From the NCBI RefSeq assembly GCF_004010195.1, contig NC_057760.1, positions 210,320 through 274,319 on the forward strand: a stretch of 64,000 nucleotides of DNA. Reading direction: 5' to 3'. Shown in pieces: positions 20,463 through 56,959 of the stretch (positions are counted from its first letter, which is position 1; each line of letters opens with the position of its first letter). This DNA comes from Chiloscyllium plagiosum. Taxonomy: Eukaryota. The translations under genes were made by a program, and so were the position numbers. The notes beneath the pieces are model-generated. The model ran no database searches and was not told the origin of the DNA. It saw nothing but the letters and a program-made list of their open reading frames with translations.

Positions 20463-20555
20463 GACTCCAGATCCACAGCAATGTGATTGACTGACTCATC
20501 ACTACCTTCTGAAATGGCCTGGCAAGTCACTCAATTTGAATGTAAGTAGTGATGG

Positions 20556-24280: not shown

Positions 24281-24475
24281 AACAATGCAGATATAAATGC
24301 TAAGGACATGCTGAAGATGACTGCTTTGCACTGGGCAGTGGAACATGACCATCGCGAGGTGGTGGAGATTTTGTTAAAATATGGAGCAGATGTTCATGCT
24401 TTGAGCAAATTTGACAAAAATGCCTTTGATATCGCCCTTGACAAGCACAATCCTGAATTGGTGGGAATATTGCAG
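24281..24475 (+). CDS. GABPB2: GABPB2 coding exon 3, ankyrin repeats ([22 protein letters not shown]...[24 protein letters not shown])
   Basis: tgtag acceptor, gtatgt donor, 195 nt, phase 0/0; overlaps ORF 24308..24508. Confidence 0.96.
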
Positions 24476-26309
24476 GTATGTGGAAAGATGTTTGGAAGGT
24501 GTGGGTGAGTTTTGGTAAATTTGGAAAGCATTGCTTCAGTTTACTAGAAGAATTTCCAGATAAAAGAGAACACAGCACCCTTGTCGTGTAATTATTGGGT
24601 CAGAGCAGGAAGAGAAGCTAGCATTCTTATGGCACCTTTTATACCCTGGAGACCCTTTTTTAAAGCATTTCAGAATGCATGAAAAACAGACAAAGTGTAA
24701 CTGTTGCTCTAGGAGGGTAGTGGTTTGAGTACCATAATGGCTTTGTTGGCTATGAGCAAAATTAGCCACAGCCCTTGCTCCTAATTTATTATGTAGCTGA
24801 GCTGGGAGGTGGTATTGCTGAGAAATCAAGATTAGCTGAGATATCTTTATGGGCAGCTAATGTGGCTACTCTTCCTGAATAATATATCCAGGAGGAATGG
24901 GTGAGATACTTTTTCAGTAATGGCAGGTGGTACAGGAGCTTCCCCTATAAAGAATTGGTCTCTGCAGAACAGAAAAGAGGGGAATTACAGCTATTTTGAG
25001 AGCAGGGTTTAATCATCAGTAATGTGTTCTTTATAATAGATGTAAAGAACCTTTCGTACTTGTAACAGAGTTTCATTCTTGGTACTACCCATGACCGGTT
25101 GATGAGCATGTTTTATGTGGTTATAATACACACAATACAGTGAGACAGAGGATCTAAAACTCTTTCTACCTAGGGAAATTGCAACTAAATTGTTACAATT
25201 GTTTATGTGCCAGGTTCCCTTTTGAGACATTTTCATCAGTAAGCAATGCCATTGTTCAGTGTTGACTTGAAAGTACAACCACAGGAAGGTTGGGTGAGAA
25301 CATCTGCAAAATTTTTAATAATCCTGATAGTTGGAGACAGGGTTGGTAGGCATTAAGCAATGATGACTTTTACGTATACACCATTAATGTGATGGTTTTC
25401 TGCATGTTTGCCCAACTGGCTGCTGCAGTGCAGCCTTGATTTATCATGTTAATTCTGAATTCTCCATGAACTCTAGCACAAATGGGATCTATCAAACTTC
25501 ATTTGGAAGTAACCTTGTTTGACATGACTCTGGGAGCATAATGATGTTCATTAGAAAGACTGCAGTTTTCAGAAAACCCATTATTTTAAACAGTTAATGT
25601 CATCCGCCAAGAGCTTCTCCGTAGACACAGCTAACTGAAATGTTGCACTAGTGTCCAGTAGGTTCATTTTCTAAAGTAACTCCAAGTGAGTCCTGTGGCC
25701 TATCTTTGCCACAGCATTACGTCTACTTGCCGAGATGCAATGCCTTAACATCTGCTGCCCAGCTGTGCACTTAGTAATGTCACCATCCAGATTTCAATGC
25801 CAAACCAGTTAGCTTTGGTAAGCATGTAAATATCCATATGGATTCAATGAAAAATTACCTTAAGAATGCACGTCAATGCTAAAGTGTCTTGAAGCTCAGC
25901 TATCGCAAAATCACTCTCACCTATTGAGGAAAAACTCTACAGGCTGGGGCTGTTTTCTCTAGAAAAAGGAAGATTGAGTGACCCAATAAAGGGTCTGTTG
26001 TTTGGATGGAGAGAAGCTTGGGTGGCTGTCTTATAAATAATTTGGGTTGCATTGCCTGCCAGTGCTCAGTATGCTTGTACTTAAGCTGCCAAATGAGGCC
26101 TCCCCATGTTTCTGAAACTTAACCCAGCAAGTGTGAGCACATAGGACAGGTTGTCAGGAATAGGATGAAGGTCAGGATGCAAAAAATATTCAAGCAGATT
26201 TAGAATTCTGTATTAGATTAGGAAGATGATTGGATGTGTTGGTCTGGATGACCCCATGGACTTTGAAACCTATTCATGATTGCAGATTACTGAAGCATCA
26301 TGAAGTAAT

Positions 26310-26655
26310 CATATAATCCCTACAGTATGGGAACAGACCATTCAGCCCATCGAGTCCACACCAACTTTCTGAGAAGCAGCTCACCCACAGACCCACCCCA
26401 CTACTCTGTTTCTGTAACCCTGCACTTCCCATGGCTAATTCACTTATCCTGCACATCCCTGGACACAACGGGCAATTTAGCATGGCCAAATCACCCTAAT
26501 TCTCACATGTTGGACTGTGGGAGGAAACCGGAGCACCCAGAGAAAACCCAAGCAGATGCTGGTGAACGTGCAAATTCCATGCAGTTAGTCGTCTGAGGTT
26601 GACATTGAATCCAGGTCTCTGGCACCGTGAGGCAGCTGCGCTAACCAGTGAATCA
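26310..26655 (-). mobile_element. HE1-type SINE
   Basis: Homologous to 16011-16325. Confidence 0.8.
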
Positions 26656-26677
26656 CCATTCTGTTCACAAGTCCTTT

Positions 26678-27212
26678 GGAGGAGGCCAAGGACCTGCATG
26701 TCCTTGGTGGAGTGGGAGGGAGGTCCTTGGCCGCCTCCATCACCAGAAAGGACATGCAGGTCCTTGGCCTCCTCCATCGCCAGACCCTGACCACACGACG
26801 CCTGGAGGAAGAGTGCCTCATCTTCCGCCTAGGAACCCTCCAACCACACGGGATGAATGTAGATTTCTCCAGCTTCCTCATTCCCCCCCCCCCCCCCACC
26901 TTATCTCTGTCCCAACACCTGGATTCAGCACCGCCCTCTTGACCTGCAATCTTCTTCCCGACCTCTCCGCCCCCACCCCCTCTCCGGCCTATCACCCTCA
27001 CCCTCACCACCTTCCACCTATCGTGTTCCCAGCGCCCCTCCCCCCTACCTTTTATCCCAGCCCGCTTGGCACACCAGCCACATTCCTGAAGAAGGGCTTA
27101 TGCCCGAAACGTCGATTCTCCTGCTTCTCGGATGCTGCCTGGCCTGCTGTGTTTTTCCAGCACCATATTTTTCAACTCTGGTCTCCAGCATCTGCAGTCC
27201 TCACTTTCTCCC
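26678..27212 (+). mobile_element. Penelope-like 3' end/pLTR with hammerhead motif and short 5' inversion
   Basis: RRLEEECLIFRLGTLQPHGMNVDF C-terminal motif; CTGAAGAAGGGCTTATGCCCGAAACGTC at 27086-27113. Confidence 0.8.
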
Positions 27213-27535
27213 AGTATACAGCATTTCCAGGCTTGGCATACAAAGTTTTCTCTGCTCTGATATTGTGACCCAAAAGATACTCTATGACATGCTTTTACTC
27301 CAGAAGGGCATGGGCTACTGCCTCCATGTTTTAGATTTCCCACATTTCCCAGCCCCCAGAGTGGAACTGCTGGGTTTTTTTTTGACATTGAAGCAATGTG
27401 CTCCATCCTTGTATGATGTTGCTCATTACCTGACCCTGGGATTTCTAACTCCTCAAAGTGCCACTTTGAAGGTGTTAAATCTCTGAGCACACCATAGTAT
27501 ACCCCATGTAACAGGTTCACTCATGTCCTTTGCAG

Positions 27536-27677
27536 GAAGCCATGCAGAATCAAGTGAACACAAATCCAGAGAGGACAAATTCAGTCGCTGTCGCCACACC
27601 ACAGTTCATCATTGCGCCTGCAGGAGTGATGAACCTCTCAGGACTGGTTTCTTCAACATCTACCAAAACAACCTCAG
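27536..27677 (+). CDS. GABPB2: GABPB2 coding exon 4 ([47 protein letters not shown])
   Basis: tttgcag acceptor, gtgtgt donor, 142 nt, phase 0/1; EAMQNQVN and TKTTSG as recalled for GABPB2. Confidence 0.9.
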
Positions 27678-29624
27678 GTGTGTAAAGGGCAAGTTATGGC
27701 CTCCCCTTACAAAGGCTGAATTTCAGAATGGGACAATCTGAGGTGGTTAACACTGTTGTCAGTGGGTTTGTGTGTAATCTTTTCTTTGTATTTACTGTTA
27801 CCCATCATGGCTGTGCTGAGTTGGTCATTATCACTTTTTGATATAGATGATGATTGTGTTAATTGTAGGGTCAGAGGCCTGGCTAGGGGTTAACCCTTGC
27901 TGATCTATTCGCTCTTCCTGTCCGCAAGTAGACCTTGGACCTTGCCAGGAGCTCCACTCATGCCACGTTTCCCCATGTTTGCCTCCTGTCTGGCTGTTAA
28001 CAAAGTGACCTGTTGAAATCAAACACTACCAGGCCAAGTGCAGCACTGGTTAGATGCAGAATAACTGCTATCCCCTCACCAACACAACCACCACCACCAC
28101 ATACACACCCACCCTTCGTTTCTTCATGCACTTCCACCAAGTGTAGCATGCATCATGTATAGAATAAATCTCCCTCCACACTGCCTAACAAACACACACC
28201 AAGAAAGTTGACTCAATGTGTCCGTGTTGTACTCACCCACCTAACCCATTCGGTCTGGTTGTCATGTGTTCCACGGGCTGGTTGCTCAAACCAGTGGAGG
28301 CTGTGTCGCCTATTACCACCAATTCAGTTTATCTTCCCCACCAAAACATTTGTTTGTGGTGCCCACAGACACGGTCAATGGATTGTTGTCAATGTATGAA
28401 AGTAAGCAATAAATGTAGAATCTGGATAGACAGTAATGGCTGAACCTTTTTCTAATTGGAACCCAAGCGTGTGTCTGGGTTCACCCTGCCATTCTTGTTG
28501 CAGTGGACCCAACCCCAAATGGGGGACCTCCTTTGATGCACAGAATGAAATCATCTAGCTGAGCAGGGATGAGGACACAAGTCCCTCCTTTAACTTCAGA
28601 ACCATTGCAATTCAGCTGGAAGAAGTGAGCTTTTCATTGTACTCGTGAGTACATGTGACAATAAAGCTAATTCTAATTCTGAAAGAGGAAGTTCAGAGTG
28701 CCATAACCAAGGTAGAGGATGGATGCATCAATGATTCCTTTTAAATGGGAATGTTTACATTTTTGTCATTTTGGCAATTAATAGTTCTTTTCTGCGGAAC
28801 ATCACTTTTAAGACCTAGCAGTATTAACAAGGTGAAAGAAGGACATTTTCATGTCAGTGTAACATTTCATCCATACTTTTCCCTTGAACTGAGTGGCTTG
28901 CTTGGTCATTTTAGAGGGCAATTAAGAATGAAACACATTGTGAATTTGGTGTCACATGTAGTCACAAGTTTGGCAAGGATAGCATATTTCCGCTGATGGG
29001 CATGAATGAACCAGGTGGGATTGTACAAGAATTGATAACAGACTCTCGGTCATCATTGCTGGTTCAGGTGGAATTTAAACCCATGTCTCCGGTGCGTTAG
29101 CATTGAGCTTCTGGATCACAGGTCAGTGACATCTCCTCTGCATCACTGACTCCCCTCTGTCACAGAATTGTTTTTCCATTGCAAAGTTGTCTTGATTTCC
29201 AAAAATCTTAGTGAGTCCTCTGTCACTTTTTTTTGACTTCTATCATTGTGACCCTGGTAATGTATTGTGTGTCTGTGTGTTCGTATCTGTACCTGTGAAA
29301 ATTAAACCGTATCCGCCCAATGGTTGATGCCAACTCACTGTCTTTATACCCATGTAAATCAGCATGGTCAAAGAAATAAATGCATTCTGAAGTTAGGCAG
29401 TGTCTGTGGAGAGAGAAAGCAAGTTAATGCTTCAGGTCCCATCAGAAGTGGTCAGGGATCGCAGAAGATTTGGATGGAACGGTATTACTTTCCATTCTGT
29501 GTCCTTGGTTTGGGAAAGAAAGATCGGCTTGTGTATGAGCTCATCACTGGTGTCGTTTACACAAGCTGCTTGATATGTTTACATTATAATTTTTTTTTTA
29601 GAATTTTGAGGGTTTTTATTGGCT

Positions 29625-31737
29625 AGTGGAGAGGACCCAGGGAGATGGTGAGGAAAGAGATCGATCTGAGACGGGTATAGCTGAGAAGAGAAGTGAGTCA
29701 AACAGTCAGAGCAGACAGGGACAAGGTAGGACTAATAAATTGAACTGCATTTATTTCAATGCAAGGGGCCTAACAGGGAAGGCAGATGAACTCAGGGCAT
29801 GGTTAGGAACGTGGAACTGGGATATCATAGCAATTACGGAAACATGGCTCAGGGATGGGCAGGACTGGCAGCTTAATGTTCCAGGATACAAATGCTATAG
29901 GAAGGATAGAAAGGGAGGCAAGAGAGGAGGGGGAGTGTCGTTTTTGATAAGGGATAGCATTACAGCTGTACTGAGGGAGGATATTCCTGGAAATACATCC
30001 AGGGAAGTTATTTGGGTGAACTGAGAAATAAGAAAGGGATGATCACCTTATTGGGATTGTATTATAGACCCCCGATCATCAGAGGGAAATTGAGAAACAA
30101 ACTTGGAAGGAGATCTCAGCTATCTGTCAGAACAATAGGGTGGTTATGGTAGGGGATTTTAACCTTCCCAACATAGACTGGGACTGCCATAGTGTTAAGG
30201 GTTTAGGTGGAGAGGAATTTGTTAAATATGTACAAGACAATTTTCTGATTCAGTATGTGGATGTACCTACTAGAGAAGGTGCAAAACTTGACCTACTGTT
30301 GGGAAATAAGACCGGGCATGTGACTGAAGTGTCAGTGGAGGAGCACTTTGGGGCCAGCGACCATTATTCTATTAGATTTTAAATAATGATTGAAAAGGAT
30401 AGAGCAGATCTAAAAGCTGAAGTTCTAAATTGGAGAAAGGCCAATTTTGACAGTATTAGGCAAGAACTTTCGAAAGCTGATAATGGCAGATGTTCGCAGG
30501 TAAAGGGAGGGCTGGAAAGTGGGAAGCCTTCAGAAATGAGATAACGAGAATCCAGAGAAAGTATATTCCTGTTCGGGTGAAAGGAAAGGCTGGTAGGTAT
30601 AAGGAATGCTGGATGACTAAAAAAGTTGAGAGTTTTGGTTGAGAAAAAGAAGGAAGCATAAAGATTAGATTCGATTAGATTCCCTGCAGTGTGGAAACAG
30701 GCCCTTCGGCCGAACGAGTCCACACCGACCCTCCAAAAGTCACTCCCCCCCCCCCCCCGACTAATGCACCTATAACACCATGGGCAATTCAGCATGGCCA
30801 ATTCACCTGACCTGCACATCTTTGGATTGTGGGAGGAAACCGGAGCACCCGGAGGAAACCCACGCAGACTGAGAGAATGTGCAAACTCCACGCAGACAGT
30901 TGCCCTGAGGTTGGAATCGAACCTGGGACCCTGGTGCTGTGAGGCAGCAGTGCTAACCACAGAGCCACTGAACCATAGATCGAGTGAATCCTTAGAGTAT
31001 AAAGGAAGTAGGAGTATACTTAAGAGGGAAATCAGGAGGGCAACAAGGAGACAAAGCTCCTTGAAAGTGGAGTTGCAGGTAAATAGGATAGTGAAGAAGG
31101 CGTTTGGTATGCTTTCCTTTATTGGTCAGAGTATTGAGTACAGGAATTGGGACGTCTTGTTATGGCTGTACAGGACATTGGTTAGGCCACTGTTGGAATA
31201 TTGCATGCAATTCTGGTCTCCTTCCTATCGGAAAGATGTTGTGAAACTTGAAAGGGTTCAGAAAAGATTTACAAGGATGTTGTCAGGGTTGGAGGATTTG
31301 AGCTACAGGGAGAGGCTGAACAGGCTGGGGCTGTTTTCGCTGGAGCGTCAGAGGCTGAGGGGTGACCTTATAGAGGTTCACAAAATTGAGGGGCATGCAT
31401 AGGGTAAATAGGCAAAGTCTTTTCCCTGGGGTCGGGGAGTCCAGAACTAGAGGGCATAGGTTTAGGGTGAGAGGGGAAGATATAAAAGAGACCTATGGGG
31501 CAACTTTCTCAAGCAGAGGATGGTACGTGTATGGAATGAGCTGCCAGAGGATGTGGTGGAGGCTGGTACAATTGCAGCATTTAAGAGGCATTTGGATGGG
31601 TACATGAATAGGAAAGGTTTGGAGGAATATGGGCCGGGTGCTGGCAGATGGGACTAGATTGGGTTGGGATATCTGGTCGGCATGGACGGGTTGGACCGAA
31701 GGGCCTGTTTCTGTGCTGTACATCTCTATGACTCTAT
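29625..31737 (+). mobile_element. CR1/HER1-type LINE with internal RT deletion (near 31050) and nested SINE
   Basis: CIYFNARGL, IIAITETWL, VMVGDFNLP, then a jump to KKAFGMLSFI; 3' tail ends ctctatgactctatg. Confidence 0.9.
30661..30968 (-). mobile_element. HE1-type SINE nested in CR1
   Basis: Homologous to 16011-16325. Confidence 0.85.
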
Positions 31738-32625
31738 GGTGTGCCTTATTTTGATTTGAGGCGCTGCTCACAATGATTGCTGCAGGAGTACAGTGCAAGT
31801 TATACTGTGGAGATTCAGGTGAAGTGCAGAACAATTCAGTGTTGAAAAACTAGTTGGACAATGACGTGTGGATGAGAATGTTTAAATAATCAGATTGCTT
31901 CCAATGTTTCAAAACAAAGTCTATCCAACAGCCCCTTCGAGCGTGTGAGTTCAAGATGAATGTTTCTCTTTTTTTAAGAGAAAACTATTGTCCCTTCCCC
32001 TTGTGATGGCAATTCTTGCTGATGTGAAGTTTCAAGTCTGCTTCATCTAACATGTCATTTGTCTCCTGGAAGACTAGAAGGATATTATTAGATATTTATC
32101 CACGTGGAGGGGTGTGGGGAAAGAAGAGTGAGGGTAATGTCTAGAGATCTGGATTACTCATTTGGACTTTTTTGAACTCTGCCCTCTGAGTACTGCAGCC
32201 AGTGGCTGCTCCACTAGTTCAGACCAGCAATCAACCCTGTAGCCGTCCATATCTCTTGTGGCTAAGTACAGCACTTTCTTTTTCTTGTTATCTTGAAGAG
32301 CACAGAGAGCCCAAATAGTATTCTTCTTAATAATACAGAAAAAGTTCTGTCTCCAGAGTTGGAGATAACTGGCACCGAACTGTCATTTGCAACTTCTTAA
32401 GAATAGTCTATTTACTTCGATGTAATTTTTGAACCATGGCAAAATATAAGATGGTCAAATGAATCAGTGCCCTATGCTGTTTTTGTAATACAGCATTGAA
32501 TATTTGCCACACTTTATCAAACTACATATATAAGATTTTTTTTAAAAATGAGTCTCCATAATTTCCATCCTTAGTTGCTCATGTCTTTGTTTGGTACTGA
32601 GTCTAACCCCTCGTTACCTCTGCAG

Positions 32626-32739
32626 GTGAATCTGGTGTATCCACAGTACAGTATGGTAACTCCACAACCTCAGTACTGGCTACGCTGGCTGCTTTAGCTG
32701 AAGCTTCAGGGCCACTCTCAAATTCACCCCGAAGTACAG
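32626..32739 (+). CDS. GABPB2: GABPB2 coding exon 5 ([38 protein letters not shown])
   Basis: ctgcag acceptor, gtaatt donor, 114 nt, phase 1/1; conserved [13 protein letters not shown] motif. Confidence 0.93.
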
Positions 32740-35091
32740 GTAATTTCCACAAATGTATCGTAAAGTGTGCCCTTTTTAAATATATATATGATACAAATAT
32801 ATTTGGAATATGTAAATATTCCATAAGTTTTTTAATTTAAAAGTCTGCCCCTTAACAGTTGAGAGTGCATAGTTCGAACATAAATGTGGCACAGGCAGAG
32901 TTAGGGTAGAACTAATACCACCATTGCAACTAAAACAAAACATTCTGAACAGTCATGCTATATGAACAGTTTGGAACTGACCAGTTTGCTACTGGAGGTG
33001 CCTGGGCTAAATGCAGCACATGGATCTAGTTTAGTTTGGGAAACTTAGTCAGCATGGACGAGTTGGACTGAAGGATCTGTTTCTGTGCTGTATGATTCTT
33101 TGACTCTATAAATGATCATGACAGAAATTGCAATGTTCACGAAGAATGTGGATACCGATTGTTTTAATTAGCAAAAAATTCTCTTTGCTGTGCTGCCCTA
33201 TATATTCACTCAGATCCTGGAATGAAGAGTTCAACAGCTTCTGCAGCTTGTGTTAATATATTTCTGTCACAGCGGGAGGGAAAATGATTTTCTCTCCACA
33301 ATATGACCAAACAAAAAGAAGTGAAACTCATTAAAAAATAAGGCTGGCTCCAAGGCAATTAATATTGTACCAGAACACTCCTCAGTATTTTCTTTTGTGG
33401 CTTTGTTTGCCCATAGGCTAAAATCCCAGCAATAACGTTTCTTGATGCTTGAATAAATGTTATTTACTGTACCTATTGATGTTTGTTTTATATTCGCAGT
33501 GTGTGAACTGAGGACAGGCAATGCAAATTACTGCAGAAAGATGAGGATTTCCCTGACCCTGCTGACAGGGGGTTATGATGCAAATTTTTGGTGTTGCTAG
33601 ATGTGAGACTATTTTAAGATAACAACCAACCATGATCTAATTACATGGTTTAACAGGCCCAAGGGGGCTGATTGGCCCACCCCCTCCTGTTCCCATGTTT
33701 TTCTGATAGGTTGATATAACTTGATGAACAAAACCAGACTGTAAATAGTAAACATGAGTGAAATGAAGCGGTCAGTGAAGTGGGCTCCCACTTTCCAACC
33801 ATCAACATGATTTTGCCAGTACATGGATCCCCAACTTACAAACACTCACATGTTTGAACACAATCCCATACTGGGGTATAATCTTAAAGATCCAACCCAC
33901 AAATGTTTCTGTACTTATAAACTAATATTCTATATTGTCCAGCATTGTGTTCTGACTTGTGTACAAATTAGCTTGCGAATCAAATCAAGAATGGAACCAG
34001 TTCACAACCTAGGGATTGCTTAATTCAAATTGTAATGCTATTTAGCTGGAGCCCTCGAGATCCTCCTTGTGCATTGATGACCGAGTTTATTCAATAAAGA
34101 GTACCTCTGGGACGCCTACTGGCGATGGGGGAGAGTGAAGCTTGTAGCTTTTTCAATCGGGGAAATCTTTGTCCAACGCTGGCATGTTTTTTTTAAGTTT
34201 GCAATATTACTGGTTGTGAAACTGAATGCCTGTGTGTTAAGTTAATAATTTTTGAGAAATATTTAATGAGACAGTAGCCATGGTGACTGAAGAGTTAGGA
34301 TCCCTTTGACCCTCTTCTACCATTTGATAAGTTTACAGTTGATACTTTATATAATTTTCCTCCCCGCTACCATGTCCCTTGATTCTTCTTGCATCTAAGG
34401 ATCTGTCAATCTTAGCCTTGAATATACTCAATACTGGAATAGAGAAATCGAAAGATTCTTCTGCGTTTAATAAAAGTTTCTGTGTGAAATGGCTAATTTT
34501 CTTCATTGATCTTGTGACCCTTAATTCTGGACACTCTAATCAGGGTGAAACAGCCTCTTGGCATCCACAATGTTAAATGTTTCATCACATCTCTCACTTT
34601 TCTCAAGTGCGGACAGTATACTTCATTCTGCTCTGAGACAGTCCCATAATCTCTGGTATCGGCCCAGTGAATTTTCTTGGGTCAATTTTGGGTAATTAGT
34701 CATAGCTTTTCTAGCTTTTACTTTTAATTTCTGGAAAATGTCATTGTTGCCAGTAGATGACCACTTCATTATTTTTCCCAGAATTTTGGCAGCAGCCAAA
34801 AAGTGCCTGAAAAGAGAGCTTATTTAAGGATTCAGATGGAAATTTTTTTTTTTCACTTTTCTCTTTCAGATCCTGACCAACCATTCACAGCAACTTCTAT
34901 CTTTAATACTGGTTTACTGTATTTTGCAATTTTTTTCTCAACTTATAGCACTCTTTACTAGCTCGTGCAGAAGATGAGCTCTGAGCCCACATTCTGGTAA
35001 ATGGCGAGTGTGCTATGCTGCATCCTTGAGGACGGTACTTCTGAAATTCTGGCTCTCTATTGAATGAGCTTTTATTTTCTTCTGTTTCCAG

Positions 35092-35271
35092 GTGCAACAG
35101 AGGAAGTGGTGACTGCAGACTCGGTCGACTCGGCGATTCAGCAGGTCGTAGGCAGTGGAGGTCAGAGGGTTATCACCATAGTGACGGACGGTGGGGTGCA
35201 GCTGGGTAACCTTCCAGCGGGCATTAACACTGGCCAGCCATTCATTGTGACCATGCAGGATGGACAGCAAG
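35092..35271 (+). CDS. GABPB2: GABPB2 coding exon 6 ([34 protein letters not shown]...[13 protein letters not shown])
   Basis: ttccag acceptor, gtaggc donor, 180 nt, phase 1/1; lies in ORF 35064..35327. Confidence 0.94.
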
Positions 35272-36299
35272 GTAGGCGAGGAATCATTCATATAGCAGCC
35301 AGAATTGGGTTTCATGGGTTCCCATAAATTTTGAAATAAGCTTGTTAGCCTCTCGTCCACTCTTTCTCCGTTCATTTTCCTGGCCTATTTCTCTCCCCAG
35401 CATCTGAAGGGCCTACTGTTGGAAGACACTAGCTTCTCATACGTGCCCTTTCTGGCAGTGGTCTTTAGATCACAAAAAAGTTAGATCCAGATTTTATTTT
35501 CTCCTTGCTCTTCCCTGTAAGAGTTAGGGGGTAACTACTGCCCCACTCAGTGCAGATTGACAGTCACCAGAACTGTTACAATGCAGAAGACGGCTAATTG
35601 GCCCAGTGCCACTGACTGAATGAGAACTCATCTAGTGTCATTCTCTGCCTTCTCCCAGTAACCTTGCATATTTTTTCCTTTTCAAATAACCATTCCATTA
35701 CTTTCTTGGAAGCCTCTGCCCCCACCAGATTCTCTTGCAGTGCATTTGGAACCCAAAACACTGGCTGCATGCAAAAAGAATTTTTTCATTATCACTATGT
35801 TCTTTATGAAGCCTAATGCATTTTCTCGTTCTTTATCCTTTTGAGGATTAAAACTTAAAATATTTCCTGGTCTGCTGAGCATTGGTGTCACAACATGTCC
35901 TCATTCTGCTGAGCTGTTGGACAAATAAAACTTTCCTGTTGTGTGACTGCACAGAGTCAAACACACAAATTATATTCACTGCCTCACCCAGTCCTATGTG
36001 TCATCAAGAAAGCTGATAGCTTGGTTTGGAAACAGGTCAGCCACCTTTGCATATTCACCTGGTGCCTGCGTTTACATTCGGGGAAAATCACTCTTGTACA
36101 ATGGTAGTCCTGTTCTGCAGTGTCCCTTTTGGTTTGCATGCTATGCGTTGCAGCCATAATGTCCAGAGTAAGAAATAAATCTCGGTTTTCCTTGAGTTAG
36201 GACATCTATTATAGGGTATTCCTGAATGACCCATCTGATCAGCCTTGCTGGAAAATACAAGTCCAGTGCAAGGAGTGTTTTAACCTCAGCTGACCCTTA

Positions 36300-37150
36300 G
36301 TAAGCTTGCAGATAACACAAAGATTGGCAGAGTTGAGGGTTGTGAGAAGGATTGTCAGAGGATACAGCAGGATATAGATAGTTAGAGGCATGTGCAGGAA
36401 GTTAACAGATGGAGTTTAATCCGGGCTAATGTGAGGTGATACATTTTGGAAGGTCAGGTACAGGTGGAAATTAAACAGTGAATGGCAAAACCTTTGATAA
36501 ACTGAGGGTTCCGGATGTGCAGATCCACAGCTCGCTGAAGGTGGCAGCGTAGGTAGATAAGGTAATGAAAAAGGCCTATGGCATGTTAGGCTTTCATTGG
36601 AAGGGGCATTGAGTATTAGGATAGGCAAGTTATGCTGCAGCTTTATAGAACTTTAGTTAGGCCACACTTGGTCTGGTCACCACACTGCCAGAAGAGTGTG
36701 GATGCTTTGAGAGGGTACAGAAAAGACTTACCAGAATGTTACTTGGTATGGGGGATTTTAGCCTTGAAGGAAGGTTAGATAGACTGGGTTTATTTTCACT
36801 GGAACACAGGAGGTTGAGGGGTGACCTGATAGTAGTTTACAAGATTGTGAATGGCATGGATTGAGTGGAAAGTATGAGGCTCTTCCTCCAGGGTGGAAGG
36901 TTCAGTTACGAGGGGGCACAAGTTCAAGATGCGGACGGGGAGTTTAAAAGAGATGTGCCAGTCGAGTTTTTCGTGCAAAGAGTGGGAATTGCCTGTAACA
37001 TGCTGCCAAAAGTGGTGGTGGAAGCAGACACAATAGCAGCATTTCACCAGGACGAATGCATGAATAGGAAGGGAGGAGAGGGATACGGATCCTGTAAGTG
37101 AAGACAGTTTTAGTATGGCAGGGCAACATGTGTCGGTGCAGACCTGGAGG
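36300..37150 (+). mobile_element. CR1 LINE 3' fragment
   Basis: Decayed ADDTKIG...QMEFNP..CEV.HFG...LVRPHL motifs. Confidence 0.8.
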
Positions 37151-37170
37151 GCCTGTCCTTTGCTATTTTG

Positions 37171-37375
37171 GTCAGAGTGGTGCTGGGAAAGCACAGCAGG
37201 TCAGGCAGCATCCGAGGGACAGGAAAATCAACATTTCAGGCAAAAGCCCTTCATCAGGCTTTTGTCTGAACCATTGATTTTCCTGCTCCTCAGATGCTGC
37301 CTGACCTGCTGTGCTTTTCCAGCACCACTCTGATCTAAACTCTGGTTTCCAGCATCTGCAGTCCTCACTTTTGCC
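37171..37375. mobile_element. Palindromic Penelope-pLTR-derived insert
   Basis: 14-bp TSD CCTTTGCTATTTTG at 37157-70 and 37376-89; two inverted arms of about 75 bp. Confidence 0.8.
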
Positions 37376-37433
37376 CCTTTGCTATTTTGTTCTTTGTTCT
37401 CAGCTGTGATGCCTTTTTAATCAAGTAGTATGC

Positions 37434-38365
37434 ATGGTAATCTGTCAGAGCTCACTTAGAAAAGATTAGTTTTATTTGTTTTAGAAACAAAGCACTGTTG
37501 TTCCTGTCTAGAAGGACAGAACTGATAAGCCAAAAGGTTTCTATTAAGCTTGTACTGTTGCTTGGTTTGAGCACGCTTGTACAGGTCTGGTCTCCTTAGA
37601 ATGAATACATAACAACAAGAATCTAAAGGCCTTGAACAAAATGCAAATTGAATTAATGGTAATCTGTCAGAGCTCACTTAGGAAAGATAAACAATCGGGT
37701 GAGGTGCTGGAGCTACCTTGCGCTTTCACCCTGGGGTCAATTTTCAGGAGAGGTGAAAGAAAGCTGTATGGTAAGTATCATCAGTGACCTATTTGAGAGG
37801 AGCGGATGGGGTGAAATGATGATTAATTACAGTGTGCTGCTTGCCAGCATAATATTTCTTACTGGAATCCTGTTCCTGCTTTTCAGTTTTGACCCTCCCA
37901 ACCACCCATGTTGAGGAAGAGACAGTCATCACTGAAGAAATGCCAGCAAAGAAAGAGTGTCTGGAAGAAGTCCTGAATCATTCCGAATCAATAGAGAAGG
38001 TAAAGTGAAGCATACAACATTGTTTTATTTAGTTTCAAAATAGTGCTTTGACCTTCTCGAGCTACTGAAAATTAATATTCCCACATAACTGACCAGAGTT
38101 AGTGTTGTTGAACCTGTGAAGTAACCTAAAATGGCAATTCTGCTTCCTAAAAATAGTAATGCAGTTTATTAAAGTTTATTAATTTTTTTTTAGAAACAAA
38201 GCGCTGTTGTTCCTGTCTAGAAGGACAGAACTGATAAGCCAAAAGGTTTATATTAAGCTTGTATTATTGCTTGGTTTGAGCACGCTTGTACAGGTCTGGT
38301 CTCCTTAGAATGAATACATAACAAGATACTAAACGCCTTGAGTAAAATGCACATTGAATTAATGG
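37434..38365 (+). repeat. About 180-bp intronic segment duplicated on both sides of coding exon 7
   Basis: 37479-37659 matches 38188-38365; the first copy is bracketed by a 26-bp direct repeat (37434-59 and 37656-81). Confidence 0.9.
37887..37999 (+). CDS. GABPB2: GABPB2 coding exon 7 (VLTLPTTHVEEETVITEEMPAKKECLEEVLNHSESIEK)
   Basis: tttcag acceptor, gtaaag donor, 113 nt, phase 1/0; EETVI..PAKK resembles the GABP-beta basic region. Confidence 0.88.
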
Positions 38366-38599
38366 GAGGATAGCAGCAATGCAATGTTTGACCAGGCGTC
38401 AAAAGATTGCACTGGCTGGGCTTCCTGTCTCTAGAAACGTGAAGGTTGACCTAATAATTGAGTTCATTTAATTCTTTGCTGGGAAAGGAGAGTTGCCCAA
38501 TGATGAGAGCCTGAGTAAATCAGATCAATATTCTCTGGTATTTAGAAGAGTGAGAGTTGATCTCATTGAGGGAGACAAAATTCTGAAGGGCTTGACAGG

Positions 38600-39250
38600 T
38601 CATAGAGTCATACAGATGTGCAGCACAGAAACAGATCCTTCAGTCCAACTCGTCCACGCCGACCAGAATAAATCTAATCCCATTTGCCAACATTTGGCCC
38701 ATATCCCTTTAAATCCTTCCTATTCATGTCCCCATCCAGATACCTGTCAAATGTTGTCATTGTACCAGCCTCCACCGTTCTTCTTGCAGCTCATTCCATA
38801 CAAGCACTACCTTCTGCATGGAAAAAGTTACCTCTCGGGTCCTTTTTGAATCTTTACCCTCTCATCTTAAACCTATGCTCTCTAGTTTTGGACTCCCTTA
38901 CCCTGGGGAAAAGATCTTGTCTATTTACCCTATCCATACCCCTCCTGATTTTATAAACCTCGAAGGTCACCCCATTGCCTCTAACACTCCAAGGAAAAAA
39001 ACCCCAACCCATACCTCAAACCCTCCAAATCTGGCAACATCCTTGTCAATCTTTTCTGAACCCTTTCAACTTTCACAATATCCTTCCTATAGCAGGGAGA
39101 CTAAAATTACACGTGGTATTCCAAAAGTGGCCTAACCAATGTCCTGTACAGATGTAACATGACCTCCCAACTCCTATTTATGCACTGACCAATAAAGGCA
39201 GGATGCCAAATTCTGCCTTCACTGTGCTGTCTACCTGGCATGACTCCTTC
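38600..39250 (-). mobile_element. CR1 LINE 3' fragment
   Basis: LHLYRTLVRPLLEY and the same 3' tail as other copies. Confidence 0.8.
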
Positions 39251-40502
39251 AAGGAAATCCAGTAACTCAATCTCACACATGGGTGTTGCAGTGCTCCACA
39301 TGATGCTATAATACAGCAGGACATTTACACTGTGCACCTACAGAGGTCATAGATATATAGAGTCATACTGCACAGAAAGAGACCCTTCAGTCCAACTCAT
39401 TCATTCATGCTAACCAAATTTTCCAAACTAACAAATTCTATTTGCCTGCATTTGGCCTATATCCTTCTCAACCTTTTCCAATTCATTTACTTCTCCAAAT
39501 GTCTTTTGAATGTTGAAATTGTACCTGCACTGATTGCTTCTGGCAGTTCATTCCATGTATGAACCACCCTCTGTGAAAATGTTGTCCCCCAGGTTATTTT
39601 TAAATCTTTCTTCTCTTACTCCCTCACCTTAAAAGTATGCCCTGTAGTATAGCAACTTAACACCCACCCTTGGACAAGTTGGACTGAAGGATCTGTTTCT
39701 GTGCTGCACATCTGTATGACTCTATGACCTGTCGAGCTGCTTTGTGCCATTGTCTGTGTTTCAAACAAGCTTCTTCTCAATCCACCTTCACCTTATTTTA
39801 TCATAACCTCCTATTTCTTCTTCTTCTCGTGAATTTATCCAGTTTCCTCTTAAATACGTCTCTGCTGTTGGCTTCAACCAACCACTCCCTGTGGGAGTGT
39901 GTTCCACAGTCTCCCCACTTTCTGGCTCAAGTCCTTTCTTCTGAATAGTTAAATGAATGCATCAATGAATGTCTAATATCAATGGCTATCTCGGTCTGGT
40001 CTCGCCCATAATTGGAGTTATCTTCTCTACATTTACCATACCAAACTCTTTTATGTAAGAACAGAAAAAATAGGAGCGGGAATATTTGGCCTACCAAGCC
40101 TGCTCCACCATTCAGTACAACACCGCTGATCTTGCATTTTGCCTCTGCACTCCCACCTGGCCTGCATATTCCTCGATTCCCTGAGACAAGAGAAATCTAG
40201 ACCAGCCTTAAACACGTTCTACTGTGAAGCATCCGTAACATTCTGGGTGAGAGAATTTCAAAAGTTCCACAGCCCTTTCAGAGAAGAATTCCTTATCTCA
40301 GTCCTGAATGATCAGTTCCTCATCCTGAGACTGTGCCCAATGTCCTGGATTCTCCAACCATATTTGCTTGATGCCTACAGCCACCTTGAGCTGGATATGT
40401 AATTGCTACATACACTCCTTAGTGTCTGCAGATCCGCGCTATCACAAAGGTGACCCTAAATTTTTCTTTTTCCCTCGTGAACCTGTCCATTCTCACCATG
40501 CA

Positions 40503-41205
40503 GTCATAGAGTTGTACAGCACAGAAACAGACCTTTCTGTCCAACCCCGTCCATGTCGACCAGATATCCCAACCCAATCTGGTCCCACCTGCCAGCACCC
40601 AGCCCATATCCATCCAAATCCTTTCTATTCATATACCCATTCAAATGCCTCTTAAATGTTGCAATTGTAGCAGCCTCCACCATTTCCTCTGGCAGCTCAT
40701 TCCATACACGTATCACCCTCTGCGTGAAAAAGTTGCCCCATAACTTTCTTTTATATCTTTCCCCTCACACTCAAAACCTATGCCCTCTAGTTCTGGACTC
40801 CCTGACCCCAGGGAAAAGACTTTGCCTATTTACCCTATCCATGCCCCTCATAATTTTGTCAACCTCTATAAGGTCAATCTTCCGCTTCCGACGCTGCAGG
40901 GAAAATAGCCCCAGCCTGTTCAGCCTCTCCCTCGAGCTCAAATCCTCCAACCCTGGCAACAGCCTTGTAAATGGCCAATGGGCTGAGAAGTGGCAGATGG
41001 AGTTTAATTCAGATAAATGTGAGGTGCTGCATTTTGGGAAAGCAAATCTTAGCAGGACATATACACTTAATAGTAAGGTCCTAGGGAGTGTTGCTGAACA
41101 AAGAGACCTTGGAGTGCAGGTTCATAGCTCCTTGAAAGTGGAGTAGCAGGTAGATAGGATAGTGAAGAAAGTGTTTGGTATGCTTTCCTTTATTGGTCAG
41201 AGTAT
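40503..41205 (-). mobile_element. CR1 LINE 3' fragment with inverted upstream segment
   Basis: 40503-40970 is the - strand 3' end; 40971-41205 is + strand WAEKWQMEFNSDKCEVLHFG...MLSFIGQS. Confidence 0.8.
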
Positions 41206-41335
41206 GATAAAGTTACAGGGTGGGAGTATCCTCAATTTCTGTTATCCATGGGAATTCCATGTGTCTATCCCCCACGATGACAAGGATTTGGTCTATGTTG
41301 TAGAGAAAATGGGTTGTTCTGAAAAATAATGCTGG

Positions 41336-41647
41336 GTGTTACGGTGGCACAGTAGTTAGCACTGCTGCCTCACAGCGCCAGAGACGCGGGTTCAATTCCC
41401 GCCTCAGGGGACTGTGCAAACTCCACACAATCATTTTCCCCGTGTCTGCGTGGGTTTCCTCCGGGTGCTCCGGTTTCCTCCCACAGTCCAAAAATGTGCA
41501 GGTTAGGTGAATTGGCTACGCTAAAATTGCCCATATTGTTAGGTGCAGGGGTAAATGTAGGGGAATGGGTCTGGGTGGGTGTGCTTCAGCTTGTCGGTGT
41601 GGACTTGTTGGGCCGAAGGGCCTGTTTCCACACTGTAAGTAATCTAA
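41336..41647 (+). mobile_element. HE1-type SINE
   Basis: A and B boxes, V-domain, tail ...CACACTGTAAGTAATCTAA. Confidence 0.88.
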
Positions 41648-41826
41648 ATGCTCTTTGCAGATTGCTTTCACAAATACTCTGATCAAAATCAGAGTAACAA
41701 TTGGACTCTCCTATGACAGAAAAAATGCAGTTGGAAAGGGCATTTGACCCACAGTTTTGAAGTTTAATTTTCATTTATGGAAAGGGAAGTACTGTTTGTC
41801 AAACAGTTATGTAATTACTCTTTTTT

Positions 41827-43497
41827 TATAGATATTTTTACTGAAAATTTAACATGTTTTTACAAATTTACAAAAGAAAACTTAAAAAAAAACCAAGTAT
41901 AAACATTGACATACAGTTAAATCTTAAATAAATGATAACCAAAATCTATCAAACAAGAAAAAAAGAAATACCAAGAGGAAGAAAAAGACAAAACTCAACT
42001 AACTACTCATCTAACTTACACTCTGGTTAGTTGTATCATTAAAATTCTTACATTATTCAAGAGAAAAAAAACCCAACAGATAACACATAAATTGAGCAGT
42101 GATATACATGCTCGCTGGATATATTTGGTAATGTTAATACCATGTAAATACATATATAACTATAAAATTACAACCACAACAAGTAATAATTAAATATAAT
42201 AATACAAAATAACAAGGGAAAACAACCCCACTCCTAGAGACAGCGGTAAAATAGAATAAGGTAACCACCTCCCCCCACCAACATTAACTAGACCCCCTGG
42301 CCCATATATATATTTTTATATATAAAAGGGGGGAAAGAAAATCGCTAAGTAAAGGATGAATAAATAAACCCTTCTTCCCACCCCCCGGAGATAATATTAA
42401 ACAGTAAGGTAATGAAAGGAAAGAAAAAAGCGGGTAAACCGGGGTGGGGGTAGGGCAAAACAACATCAATTAACTCTTATAATTTGTTTAAGAGAGTCCA
42501 AAAGTTCCTTGGCCTTCTCCGGTGATCTGAAGTTATACACTGACCCTTCATGGCGTAGTATAGCTGGGTAGCGCAAGGAGTATTGAATGTTTAAATCCCT
42601 TATTCGCTTCTTTGCTTCATCAAACGCCGTCCTCTTTCGGACCAGAGCTGAGGAAAAGTCCTGAAATAACATAATCTTGGATCCTTTATAAGTCATGGCT
42701 TGGGGATCTTTCCCAAGATTTCTGGAGGTTTCCAAGAGCATCTGCCTCACCTTATAGCTCTGCAGCCCTAACAGGACTGGGCAGGAGTGCTGGTTCGAGC
42801 CGGGCCCGTGTATTGCAGCCTGGTAGGCCCGTTCCACCCTTACCTGGCCTGATCCAGCCTCCAGATTCAATAACTGCGGAAGCCACTGTTCAAGGAACCT
42901 TGTAAGTTGGCCGCCTCCTTCCCGTTCGGGAAGGCCCAGCAAACGAATATTTTTTCGACGATCTCGAGAATCAAGGTCGTCAGTGTGATTCTCTAAGGCC
43001 TGGACTTGCTGCTCAAGAGTCCGGACCCAATCCACGGCCGATTCTGCAATGGCCTCTGAGGTCGCGGCCTTTAGCTCCGCCCCTCCGACTCGGCATTCAA
43101 TTTCTTCGATGTCTTGGCTGTGCTTTTGTAGCGCGGCCGAGAATGAATTCCATCGACTTCGGGACTCTTCAATGAAAGCATCGATCTTTGCATCGAGTTA
43201 TTTCCACGAGGCTCGCCACCATAGGTAAGCCCCCCGGGACGGCTGCGGATGTCGCAGCTGGGGAGGGTGGGGGAGGGGCTCCTGCCTGCTGAGAACTGCG
43301 GGCTCCTTTTCCCCATAGTCATTTTTACAGGAGACAACTGTTTAAATTTAGTACCAAACCACTAATTACATTAAGTAAAAACTATTTTTAATTGATTTGG
43401 TGAGTGTGGTGGAGGAGGGTGGCCCACTTTGCCTAGGTATTGGGAGGAGCACTATAGACTCAGACTTGCTGAGTCGCTGCCATCTTGGATCTCCCGA
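41827..43497 (-). mobile_element. ORF1-only L1-clade element (half-L1-like) with both termini
   Basis: 14-bp TSD AATTACTCTTTTTT at 41813-41826 and 43498-43511; TT/AAAA target; 5' end GGGAGATCCAAGATGGCAGC; ORF1p homology; AGTAAA plus short A tail at the 3' end; no ORF2 seen. Confidence 0.85.
42466..43322 (-). pseudogene. Frameshifted L1 ORF1p (coiled coil, RRM, CTD)
   Basis: LENHTDDLDSRDRRKNIRLLGLPE...VERAY...MLFQDFS...YSLRYPAIL are typical L1 ORF1p motifs; the N-terminal part (from ATG 43322) is in other frames. Confidence 0.85.
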
Positions 43498-43859
43498 AAT
43501 TACTCTTTTTTAAGAAGCTCTACAGGCGTTGACATTAAAAGCAGCAGGTGCAGGTCATGACATGTATGGATAAAGGGAAGATGAAACCAAGTCTTATTGA
43601 TTCACTCCTAAAATCCCATTGGCATGTCCCAGTCTCGCTGTCGCTTTATTGCTTGCTCTCTTGCTCTCTAAGAAAATAACTTGGGGAAATCATTCACTTA
43701 CATCTTTTTCAAGGCCACCAATTATCCCCCATCCATAATTACCCCTTGTGAAGGCAGTGGTGAGCTGCCTTGAATTGCTGCAGTCCATATATTGTAAGTC
43801 TCTCATTTTCTCTCTTCCCGCTCCCCCCCCCACCCCCCAAAAAAGATGGTGCAGGGTTT

Positions 43860-44218
43860 TTTCTTTATTAAGTCACAGGATGAGGGTGTCACTGTCCAAG
43901 CAGCACTTATTGCCCATCCCTAATTGCCCAGAGGGCAGTTAAGGGCAACCACATTGACTGTGGGCCTGCGGACCCATATAGGCCAGACCAGGTTAGGATG
44001 GCAGTTTCCTTTCCTAAAGGATATTAGTGAACCGGAAGGGCTTTCTGACAGTCAGCAATGGATTCATGGTCATTGTTAGATTCTTAGTTCTAGATGTTTT
44101 GTTGAATTCCATTTCCACCATCTGCCACAGTGGGATTTGAGCCCGGGTCCCCAGAATGTTATCTGGATCTCTGGATTAATCGTCCAGCGATTAGTACCAC
44201 TACGCCATCGCCTCCCCT
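43860..44218 (-). mobile_element. Second tRNA-headed SINE-like repeat
   Basis: - strand head with TGGCGTAGTGG and GGGCTCAAATCC; related fragments at about 14320, 18930, 28860 and 56500. Confidence 0.6.
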
Positions 44219-44508
44219 CCCCTGTGTTAGGGAAGGAGTTCCAGGATTTTAACCCAGCCACAGCAAAGAAACGGCTAGTTTATAGTTCCAAGTCAAGATA
44301 ATGTGTGGCTCAGAGGGGAACTTGCAGTAATAGTTTTGCATGCATCTCTTACCCTTGACCTTGCAGACGAGAGAGGGCGCAGGTTTGGGAGGTGCTGACC
44401 AAGCAGCCTTGCTGAGTTGCTGCAGTACATGGTGCAAATTGCTGCCACTGTGCTTCAGTGGTTGAGGGACTGAATGTCACCGCTACTATTGACGGTCTCT
44501 TGTTTCAG

Positions 44509-44811
44509 GACACGAATGACTGCTTGGAGAGGGAACTACTTCAAAAGCAGCTCCACGAAGCAAACCGGAAAGCTCAGGAGTACCGGCAGCAGCTGATGAA
44601 GAAGGAACAGGAAGCAGAGGAGTACCGCATGAGACTGGAGGCTATTGCAAGGCTCCACACCACAGCTGAGGAGATCACTGTTGTAGAGGAGGTCACAGAT
44701 GATGGCACTGGCACGGTGATCACTATGGCAGCAGAGCTGGAAGGTCCTGAGACCACGGTGGAAACAATGGAACAGCCTACTGACATGGCGACAGAAACAG
44801 TGACTTCGTAA
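44509..44811 (+). CDS. GABPB2: GABPB2 last coding exon, coiled-coil/leucine-zipper region ([40 protein letters not shown]...ETVTS*)
   Basis: tttcag acceptor at 44507-08, phase 0, TAA stop ending 44811; the exons sum to 1323 nt = 440 aa + stop. Confidence 0.94.
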
Positions 44812-52700: not shown

Positions 52701-52706
52701 AATAAA
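52701..52706 (+). promoter_or_regulatory. Candidate distal poly(A) signal of GABPB2
   Basis: AATAAA with upstream TGTA elements and downstream U/GU-rich sequence. Confidence 0.5.
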
Positions 52707-54615: not shown

Positions 54616-54621
54616 TTTATT
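54616..54621 (-). promoter_or_regulatory. Candidate poly(A) signal of the cortexin gene
   Basis: AATAAA on the - strand about 570 nt after the stop, near the end of a repeat-free block. Confidence 0.5.
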
Positions 54622-55192: not shown

Positions 55193-55426
55193 TCATGCCA
55201 TTCTGTAGTCCAGTGCTTCTTTCTCCATGTAGTTCGTCCACGTCGAGGATGACATGCTCTGGTAGGGGTCCAACAAGATCCGGAAGCAACGGACGATGAG
55301 AAGGCCCAGGAAGGCGAAGAGGAAGACAACTAAGACTAAGGTGGTCTTCTGCTCTAGGGTTGCATTGGTGAAGCTTGTACTGGCAGCTGACATGGGTAGA
55401 GTACTACTCAGAAGATCTTGGGTCAT
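55193..55426 (-). CDS. Cortexin-family single-pass membrane protein, 77 aa (MTQDLLSS...TLEQKTTLVLVVFLFAFLGLLIVRCFRILLDPYQSMSSSTWTNYMEKEALDYRMA)
   Basis: LEQK-hydrophobic helix-RCFRILLDPY-SM-STW signature of CTXN1-3. ATG at 55426 has A at -3; splice acceptor (ttttcttgcag) with AG at 55495-55494; single coding exon, as in known cortexins. Confidence 0.9.
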   Translation of the reverse strand: MTQDLLSSTLPMSAASTSFTNATLEQKTTLVLVVFLFAFLGLLIVRCFRILLDPYQSMSSSTWTNYMEKEALDYRMA

Positions 55427-56959
55427 GCTGACCCCTTTTGGGCTTATTCCCTGGCAACCATCCAAATCTGTGTTCTGGTCAGCTTCCAAGCATCTGCAAG
55501 AAAATTGAAGCAAATTGAAGTCCCTTGGTGATTTTTATCCGAACGTACCTGACCCCATGAAGTGCTTACGACAGAAAAAGGGCCTTGCGACTGCATGTAA
55601 TTCTGCTCTGTGAGGCCATGCCTTTTCATGATCGCAAGAAAATAGGAGCCAGTGTGTGCCATTTGGCCCTTTGAGCTTGCCACCACTATTCAATGTGATC
55701 ATGGCTGATCATGCAATTTCAATCTCCCACTCTGGCTTTTTCTCCATACCCGCTGATCCCTTTAAGCCACAGGGGCCGTGTCCAGCTCCCTCTTGAATAT
55801 ATCTAACTGACCCCAATAGCTTTCTGTGGGAGAGAATTTCAAAGGTTCGCACCTCTGAGACTGAAGAAATTCTTCCTCATCTCAGTCCTGAATGGCGTAC
55901 CTCTTATTAGACTGTGGCCTCCAGTTCTGGACTTCCCCAACATCGGGAACATTCTTCCCACATTTAGCCTATCCAGGCCCATCCGGATTATATTTGCTTC
56001 TATGTGATACCCCACCCCCAATTCTTCTAAATTCCAGCGAGTACAAGCCCAGTCGATCCCGTCGTTCCTCATACGTCAGTCCTGCCATCCCGGCTATCAG
56101 TCTGGTGAACTTTCACTGGACTCCCTCAATAGTAAGCATGTCCTTTCTCAGACTAGCAGACCAAAACCACGCAGTACTCAAGATTTGGTTTCACCTAGGC
56201 CCTGTATAACTGCAGCAAGACATCCCTACTCCTATACTCCAGTCCTCTTGATATGAAGGCCAGCATGCCATTAGTTTTCCTCACTTTGGATCATCTGCTC
56301 AGACCTCCGATGAATGCCCGTGTGATTATGCCAGGCGGGCATAGAATTTTGCAAGAATGGAGGAGGCCATTCCCATCAGTCCCCTGCCAGCTCTTAGGGA
56401 GGAACTGTCTGGTTTGCCCCACCACCTCCTTGGTCTCTCCCTTTTCAAAGCGAGTTCTCCGGTCCCTCTCCACAAAATCACTGACATGTTCCCCATACCT
56501 AGCTGCCCCTTGAACCGAGTGTGGTATCATTTCAGGGGGCAGCAATCCATCCCCATGGGCCCGGAGTCATGTGGGCCAGACGGCATGAGCACGACCGACT
56601 TCTTTCCCTTGAGGATGTCAGTCAAGCAGATGAATTCAACGATGGAGGCTAGTCTCACAGTCACCATTACTGCGTTGATTAGTTTTCAATTCAGCTTGTT
56701 TTTTTTTTTTATAGAAGGTGTGCTCTTAAACCCAGCTAAACATTTCTTTTTCCCCTGTTATCAAATCACTTTCTGATTCTTTTTATCATCCATTAATCAC
56801 CCCCAGTAAACTATCCCCATGTTTCCAATTGATCAAGCAAAGCCATCATGAGTAATGCAAAGGTGAGAGAGAGTAAGGAATAGCAAGAGAAGATTAAATC
56901 ACAATGGAGTTGGAAATTAAAATTAAGTGTTCTATCCCCTGCAGTGCCCAACTCTTCCC

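Follow-up and report, generated by a model that had tools for sequence, protein, structure and literature searches.

Chiloscyllium plagiosum carries a member of a distinct cortexin clade linked to GABPB2

In this study, we asked what kind of gene is represented by a cortexin frame lying beside GABPB2 in the shark Chiloscyllium plagiosum. A passage in PMC4367835 states that the cortexin family has three members and places human CTXN1, CTXN2 and CTXN3 at 19p13.2, 15q21.1 and 5q23.2, in agreement with the bands (19p13, 15q21 and 5q23) given in the initial annotation of this locus. The shark frame could be one of these three in a new place, a form of the related CTXND2, an old small-scale duplicate, or a fourth paralogue dating from the early vertebrate genome duplications. 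We refer to it as CTXN4, a name coined in the present analysis. The whole stretch of DNA that was analysed, hereafter the window, comprises 64,000 nucleotides (contig NC_057760.1, positions 210,320 to 274,319 of the forward strand), and all coordinates below are counted within it.

The cortexin exon and its neighbour

The complete coding sequence of CTXN4 occupies 55193..55426 on the minus strand, a single exon encoding 77 amino acids plus the stop codon. Its match to the Pfam family Cortexin (PF11057; E = 9.8e-25, 86.7 bits against a cut-off of 25) is far beyond chance and, together with the open frame, confirms a real, intact cortexin, as the initial annotation had recognized from the cortexin signature. 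The protein has one hydrophobic helix (residues 30-48, mean hydropathy 2.88) followed by the conserved Cys / Asp-Pro-Tyr / Trp block, with landmarks at Cys47 and Tyr55-x-x-Met58, and all invariant residues are present. A glycosylation sequon at Asn21 has no counterpart in the great white orthologue.

The main ATG has an A at −3. Upstream of it, the 5′ part of the coding exon (55427..55493, minus strand) runs for 67 nt, open in frame, to a predicted splice acceptor at 55494..55520 (minus strand), which consists of a pyrimidine-rich tract and CAG. That the exon has its own acceptor had been claimed before and, as a prediction from sequence, is consistent with three predicted devil-ray isoforms: these differ upstream and converge on a common sequence some 21 codons ahead of the same Met, as a conserved acceptor would have it, and a ray isoform aligns across the 67 nt. 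An ATG directly after the acceptor opens an out-of-frame upstream ORF of four codons (55482-55493, minus strand), which could act as a brake on CTXN4 translation. The leader peptides of the ray isoforms found no credible match upstream in the window that would mark a first exon. Consensus splice donors occur upstream on the minus strand at 62398, 62660, 61704, 61649, 61081, 58633 and 56285; the donor at 62398, which terminates a unique stretch rich in purines, is our best guess for the end of a candidate non-coding first exon. Tandem arrays lie at 61308-61573, 61804-62195 and 63337-63850: a stretch of 138 bp is duplicated, a 32-bp minisatellite has about 11 copies, and part of a 53-bp array is inverted. 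Downstream, an AATAAA at 54616..54621 (minus strand) lies 572 nt past the stop codon and is the sole minus-strand copy in 52001-55192, with an ATTAAA at 54577. The hexamer noted in the initial annotation is thus present and plausible as the polyadenylation signal of CTXN4, at a frequency no rarer than chance, by which one to two copies are expected arithmetically in such a stretch.

CTXN4 is arranged tail-to-tail with GABPB2, as had been described, the two being 10,381 nt apart. The GABPB2 coding span, our synteny marker, covers 17957..44811 on the plus strand and was delimited by tblastn and diagnostic sites, with coding exons placed by tblastn near 17957, 21390, 24284, 27530, 32616, 35091, 37856 and 44509. 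Judged from its sequence, this neighbour is GABPB2 and not GABPB1, in line with the earlier assignment, on the basis of named matches and of diagnostic sites compared with a single frog GABPB1. The last coding exon (44509..44811, plus strand) encodes the coiled coil and an acidic tail of 56 residues, typical of GABPB2, against 12 residues past the coiled coil in frog GABPB1. It matches clusters of epaulette shark and whale shark with 100% identity and aligns over 94-100% of its length with proteins named GABPB2 from coelacanth, lungfish, birds and turtles, compared with 56% for the frog protein, the only GABPB1 returned. A PDB search listed GABP beta-1 (1awc), with an alignment to a designed repeat protein, and did not help to tell the two paralogues apart. 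At the N-terminal diagnostic sites, the R/K/T pattern of the window protein recurs in 37 of 120 rows, among them GABPB2 of caecilian, turtle and ratite, while frog GABPB1 has K/A/I. Database names vary: several shark copies of this neighbour are called 'beta-1-like' by NCBI, and a turtle GABPB2 (P0142) bears the name of a G-protein alpha subunit, a mislabel.

Within GABPB2, the exon at 32616-32759 (plus strand) is found in a long isoform (P0122, P0128) and is missing from the short ones (P0123); it is an alternatively spliced exon in sharks. The last intron contains an open frame of 243 aa (42469-43197, minus strand), in which we presume a likeness to a LINE-1-type ORF1 fragment. A Pfam scan of 119 non-repeat frames of at least 50 aa downstream of GABPB2 gave no match. 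Two teleost models carry a PF15017 domain, which we take to be that of MLLT11/AF1q, fused in front of GABPB2, and tblastn with the N-terminal parts of these models found no MLLT11-like exon in the window (best E 0.12). Nor did the portions of the window covered by our scans show an exon of SEMA6C, TNFAIP8L2 or MLLT11. In the consulted parts of pig and goat gene lists, GABPB2 adjoins SEMA6C and MLLT11.

Cortexin tail types and trees

A first homologue search yielded 137 matches among 139 candidates. Among the 120 matches listed, 93 had the tail type of the window protein, 26 were of CTXN2 type and one was a ctxn3. An exhaustive profile search gave 177 matches, and the 150 listed fell into four tail types, CTXND proteins and distant relatives, among them a lamprey and a Ciona protein, while a search of the ESM Atlas returned only cortexin clusters, labelled at phylum level. 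The tail of CTXN4 is indeed shorter than that of its paralogues, as had been noted, by three residues: 11 from Trp to Tyr, against 14 in 107 of the 120 rows of a CTXN3 search and in 26 of 27 CTXN1 rows. We rejected tail length as a sole diagnostic, short tails being found also in a ray CTXN2 (P0090), an unnamed CTXN3-type protein (P0476) and a Ciona protein. The motif SMSSSTW, which the initial annotation noted in place of the usual SMPxSxW, does contain a Pro-to-Ser change. It is not a mark of the paralogue but a trait of sharks and rays, present in four of the 93 listed clade members (all three elasmobranch rows and one flounder).

Some rows stand apart from these types. A second teleost-like form of CTXN4 with a slightly different tail (P0247-P0255, P0273, P0274, P0277-P0279) is probably the second product of the genome duplication in teleosts. 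A distant cortexin-like group (P0335, P0348, P0360, P0372, P0378, P0379, P0382, P0383) shares the Cys and the Tyr motif, carries an acidic pair ahead of the helix, and possibly comprises invertebrate relatives. The Ciona protein P0344 bears the name cortexin-3-like.

For phylogenetic analysis, rows were hand-picked from several hundred to span taxa, and unnamed rows were grouped by tail type. All 20 CTXN4-type rows formed one branch (support 100/95) in a tree of 59 rows and 78 columns, the bootstrap of which had not fully settled, as did 10 of 10 in a 28-row tree (100/98). With the N-terminus and tail removed, the group was kept in the 42-column core (87/84). The seven CTXND rows made a separate branch in the 59-row tree (98/94), and CTXN3 was not recovered as a single clade in either the 59-row or the 28-row tree. 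The stem branch of the shark clade was long (0.43-0.48). AU tests in which the three shark rows were forced into CTXN3, CTXN2 or CTXN1 rejected every placement (p-AU 0.003, 0.033 and 0.0006), so that grouping inside any of the three, an outcome that, with that gene missing from its usual locus, the initial annotation had named as counting against a fourth copy, is not borne out.

The clade spans sharks, a ray, actinopterygians and sarcopterygians, and must therefore be older than the split between sharks and bony vertebrates. CTXN4 is a distinct cortexin clade of that age, linked to GABPB2, and very likely the fourth cortexin paralogue of jawed vertebrates. Like CTXN1, CTXN2 and CTXN3, it has a single coding exon after an intron, one hydrophobic helix, a post-helix Cys, a dileucine, an Asp-Pro-Tyr-x-x-Met block and a terminal Lys...Tyr motif. 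It differs from them, besides its separate clade and shorter tail, in an Arg after the last Tyr, in its linkage to GABPB2 where CTXN1-3 are linked to FBN/SLC12A loci, and in not being found among the named mammal or bird proteins listed. Orthologues with the same tail include XP_067878898.1 of Heterodontus (81% identity) and XP_064416256.1 of Latimeria (68%), each on a contig of the same size as that of GABPB2, and XP_043935952.1 of Protopterus (64%), for which the contig value is uninformative (2e9). In databases, such orthologues bear the names of other paralogues ('cortexin-3', 'cortexin-3-like', 'cortexin-2(-like)').

Linkage, paralogon and alternative origins

In all 14 species with sizes for both genes, a CTXN4 copy was found on a contig of the same size as that of GABPB2; sizes were matched by eye, which shows a shared chromosome or scaffold and not adjacency, and two of these contigs are only 6-7 Mb long. 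The species were Heterodontus, Carcharodon, two Mobula, Latimeria, Protopterus, Platysternon, Arapaima, Albula, Anguilla, Megalops cyprinoides, Scophthalmus, Corythoichthys and Vanacampus; Scleropages, Paramormyrops, Crocodylus, Chelydra and Labrus were left out of the count with one size missing, as was Pelusios. Only one CTXN4 row of Arapaima (P0011) matches the GABPB2 contig. Where a teleost has a second copy (Anguilla, Megalops, Arapaima), that copy is on a different contig, for which there is no GABPB2 row to compare. In Albula, CTXN4 and GABPB2 have consecutive locus tags. Accessions of the two genes were close in one of four pairs compared, being 6-8 apart in the lungfish; the gap was 282 in horn shark, 376 in coelacanth and about 9,800 in Mobula.

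This linkage can be put into the context of a well-mapped paralogon. A passage on the TNFAIP8 family describes 5q, 19p, 1q21 and 15q as paralogous through two duplications (PMC5489176). The portion of the Lamb 2021 supplement examined assigns quartets of SEMA6, TNFAIP8 and MEF2 and a trio of FBN genes to paralogon 7, with arms A (5q), B (19p), C (1q) and D (15q), an empty 1q slot for FBN and, by its column layout, a split of A+B from C+D at the first duplication; this portion has no CTXN row (PMC8040251). By its one marker gene, GABPB2, CTXN4 lies on the fourth, 1q21-type arm, in the slot of SEMA6C, TNFAIP8L2 and MEF2D within the quartets SEMA6A-D, TNFAIP8/L1/L2/L3 and MEF2A-D of the same four arms. 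Those quartets are complete in humans, whereas that of the cortexins is apparently complete only outside mammals.

Given the first split of A+B from C+D, CTXN4 is predicted to be the sister of CTXN2. The best unrooted tree, (CTXN4,CTXN2)(CTXN1,CTXN3), has the shape of this split (support 74/47; 82/88 on the core), and the other two pairings were not rejected (p-AU 0.40 and 0.28). When a lamprey row was included in the 28-row tree, CTXN4 loosely joined CTXN1 and CTXN3 (87/98), the order being poorly separated, and in the 59-row tree it took a polytomy-like position with CTXN2, CTXN3 and lamprey. The pairing of CTXN2 with CTXN4 is accordingly weak: the chromosomal position supports an ohnologue reading, with which the tree order is only compatible. 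We infer an origin by whole-genome duplication, with CTXN2 as the sister and subsequent losses, and the window ORF is most probably the shark orthologue of CTXN4, a product of the two early vertebrate genome duplications.

Could CTXN4 instead be CTXN3, or CTXN1 or CTXN2, moved to a new place? NCBI labels it cortexin-3 in horn shark, great white and coelacanth, and in local comparisons of the window protein with great white proteins the best score besides its own orthologue goes to CTXN3 (187, against 168 and 153 for the other two). The own orthologue scores 288, however, and Carcharodon has all four types, on contigs of 150.3 Mb (CTXN1), 30.8 Mb (CTXN2), 205.6 Mb (CTXN3) and 6.0 Mb (CTXN4). 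The horn shark has CTXN1, CTXN3 and CTXN4 on three contigs, with CTXN2 absent from the rows returned; CTXN3 and CTXN4 occur together in 16 named species; and shark and ray CTXN1-3, including a CTXN1 cluster of nine members, lie on contigs other than those of CTXN4. Orthology to CTXN3 is rejected by this coexistence, the AU test and the tail (11 against 14 residues); orthology to CTXN2 by the AU test, a separate shark CTXN2 elsewhere and the GABPB2 features of the neighbour; and orthology to CTXN1 by the AU test and the other contigs. We consider relocation of any of the three to have a negligible chance of being true. CTXND2 requires similar attention, as its mammalian gene, we assume, is located near GABPB2, and CTXN4 might then be its non-mammalian form, diverged in mammals. 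A horn shark CTXND-like gene is even found on the same 22.06 Mb contig as CTXN4 (rows P0329 and P0002), but this also means that one species has both genes. CTXND1 and CTXND2 share with CTXN4 the Pfam family, the Cys and the Tyr-x-x-hydrophobic motif, and differ in their own branch, another pre-helix motif and a tail that ends earlier, with an identity of 21/53 between the window protein and shark CTXND, against 57/77 to its own orthologue. The view that the CTXND2-type gene is a different one is thereby upheld, orthology to CTXND2 was rejected, and such a form is very improbable. Because all types coexist in shark genomes, CTXN4 is neither a moved CTXN1-3 nor CTXND2.

The duplication order, poorly separated by the trees, also leaves some room for an old small-scale duplicate of CTXN2 or CTXN3, segmental or as a transposed exon, that arose in the jawed-vertebrate stem and came to lie beside GABPB2 by chance. 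A single coding exon is easily moved, and CTXN4 has no close FBN neighbour of the kind found on the other three arms, the 1q FBN slot being empty. Against this, CTXN4 sits on exactly the arm otherwise without a CTXN gene, the predicted intron just before its coding exon argues against a plain retrocopy, and the best topology fits the first-round split of the paralogon; we regard such a duplicate as unlikely. There is a slimmer chance that the paralogue is real and the C. plagiosum copy silent or decaying, as the window protein is absent from the protein collection searched (not annotated), the shark stem is long and a degenerate turtle copy exists (P0291). The frame, however, is intact, with a predicted acceptor and start context, the protein is 81% identical to that of the horn shark over its full length and keeps all invariant residues, and gene prediction gives three spliced isoforms for the orthologues in rays. 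Orthology of the window ORF to a fourth, genome-duplication paralogue accounts better for these observations.

Distribution and possible role

Named species account for 80 of the 93 CTXN4-type rows listed. Among fishes they are two sharks and a ray, coelacanth and lungfish, sturgeons and many teleosts; among amphibians, caecilians and axolotl; and among reptiles, lizards, geckos, turtles and a crocodile. Individual look-ups contributed a rattlesnake, two frogs, another devil ray and a degenerate copy from a turtle. Cortexin-3(-like) or cortexin-2(-like) is the label of most rows, and the others are called hypothetical or uncharacterized. CTXN4 thus persists in elasmobranchs and ray-finned fishes, in coelacanth and lungfish, and in amphibians, squamates, turtles and crocodilians. 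The initial proposal that sharks kept the fourth copy is supported by clade, AU tests and linkage as regards a CTXN ohnologue on the GABPB2 arm, and was too narrow in its taxa, as bony fishes, amphibians and non-avian reptiles kept it too. Altered or degenerate copies appear in turtle or turtle-like rows (P0291, P0259, P0288, P0037), that of Pelusios without a conserved Pro and others with tail changes, which suggests extra or decaying CTXN4 copies in turtles.

Among elasmobranchs, the protein was found in four species only. A further eight genera of sharks and rays, all represented by a GABPB2 row, yielded no CTXN4 protein, and none from chimaeras was among the proteins found. The likeliest explanation is that annotation overlooked an exon of 234 nt, with patchy loss in sharks and rays a possible one.

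No mammal or bird was among the 80 named rows of the matches listed, in a first search of limited recall (7 of 19 in-range CTXN4-type representatives of the profile search were among its listed matches). The GABPB2 search included 44 named bird GABPB2 rows. Between GABPB2 and SEMA6C, no cortexin appears in the consulted parts of the gene lists for pig and goat, and the goat list lacks CTXND2 as well. These lists are weak evidence of absence, since CTXND2 presumably lies within that very interval in mammals. To our knowledge humans have no CTXN4-type gene, which agrees with a three-member family. Loss in mammals appears highly probable, and loss in birds is somewhat favoured.

To discern what CTXN4 might do, we considered motifs shared across the family. 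Among rows retaining the anchor motif (0, 4 and 9 rows without it were dropped), a Cys at the inner helix end was found in 120/120, 115/116 and 141/141, and a Tyr-x-x-Met/Ile/Val/Leu eight residues past it in 117/120, 115/116 and 135/141, reaching CTXND and Ciona. Such features suggest N-out topology, palmitoylation of the Cys and adaptor sorting through the Tyr motif. By analogy, CTXN4 would be a single-pass membrane protein without an evident signal peptide, its outer N-terminus being short and its cytoplasmic tail 29 residues long. Cys47 would probably be palmitoylated, and the Tyr-x-x-hydrophobic motif would sort the protein between surface and endosomes via adaptor complexes. It may then serve, in neurons most likely, as a small accessory or trafficking subunit of some larger membrane protein, and its shortened, differently charged tail end may bind partners other than those of CTXN1-3. 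We offer this palmitoylated, Tyr-sorted subunit as a tentative model, somewhat less likely than not. The literature gives a few points of orientation, in the passages available: PMC4367835 says of cortexin-3 that it 'could be' a signalling membrane protein, CTXN1 is a marker of epibranchial ganglia in the chick (PMC4730756), mice without a CTXND2 homologue are fertile (PMC9226692), and a chum salmon gill table includes a 'Cortexin 3' whose paralogue is ambiguous (PMC7005315).

Among openly licensed papers and preprints, we found no description of a fourth cortexin. With CTXN4, the family grows from the three members stated in the passage cited (PMC4367835) to four, and a paralogon that is well mapped gains the cortexin missing from its 1q21 slot. 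Hidden ohnologues lost in mammals are a familiar type of result, and the family is an obscure one, with no established molecular function, for which a paralogue with a divergent tail provides a natural comparison in the search for binding partners. Many 'cortexin-3(-like)' and 'cortexin-2(-like)' entries of fish, amphibians and reptiles represent a different gene, which matters for the reading of fish expression tables. A broader picture, to which we give slightly less than even chances, is that CTXN4 completes a four-member ohnologue set, was lost twice independently, in mammals and in birds, and stayed almost unchanged in crocodilians, turtles, squamates, amphibians and fishes, its tail marking a dropped accessory-subunit function, and that some fish 'ctxn3' and 'ctxn2' data belong to CTXN4. 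If this double loss is true, the distinct tail would mark an accessory function that both warm-blooded lineages dropped.
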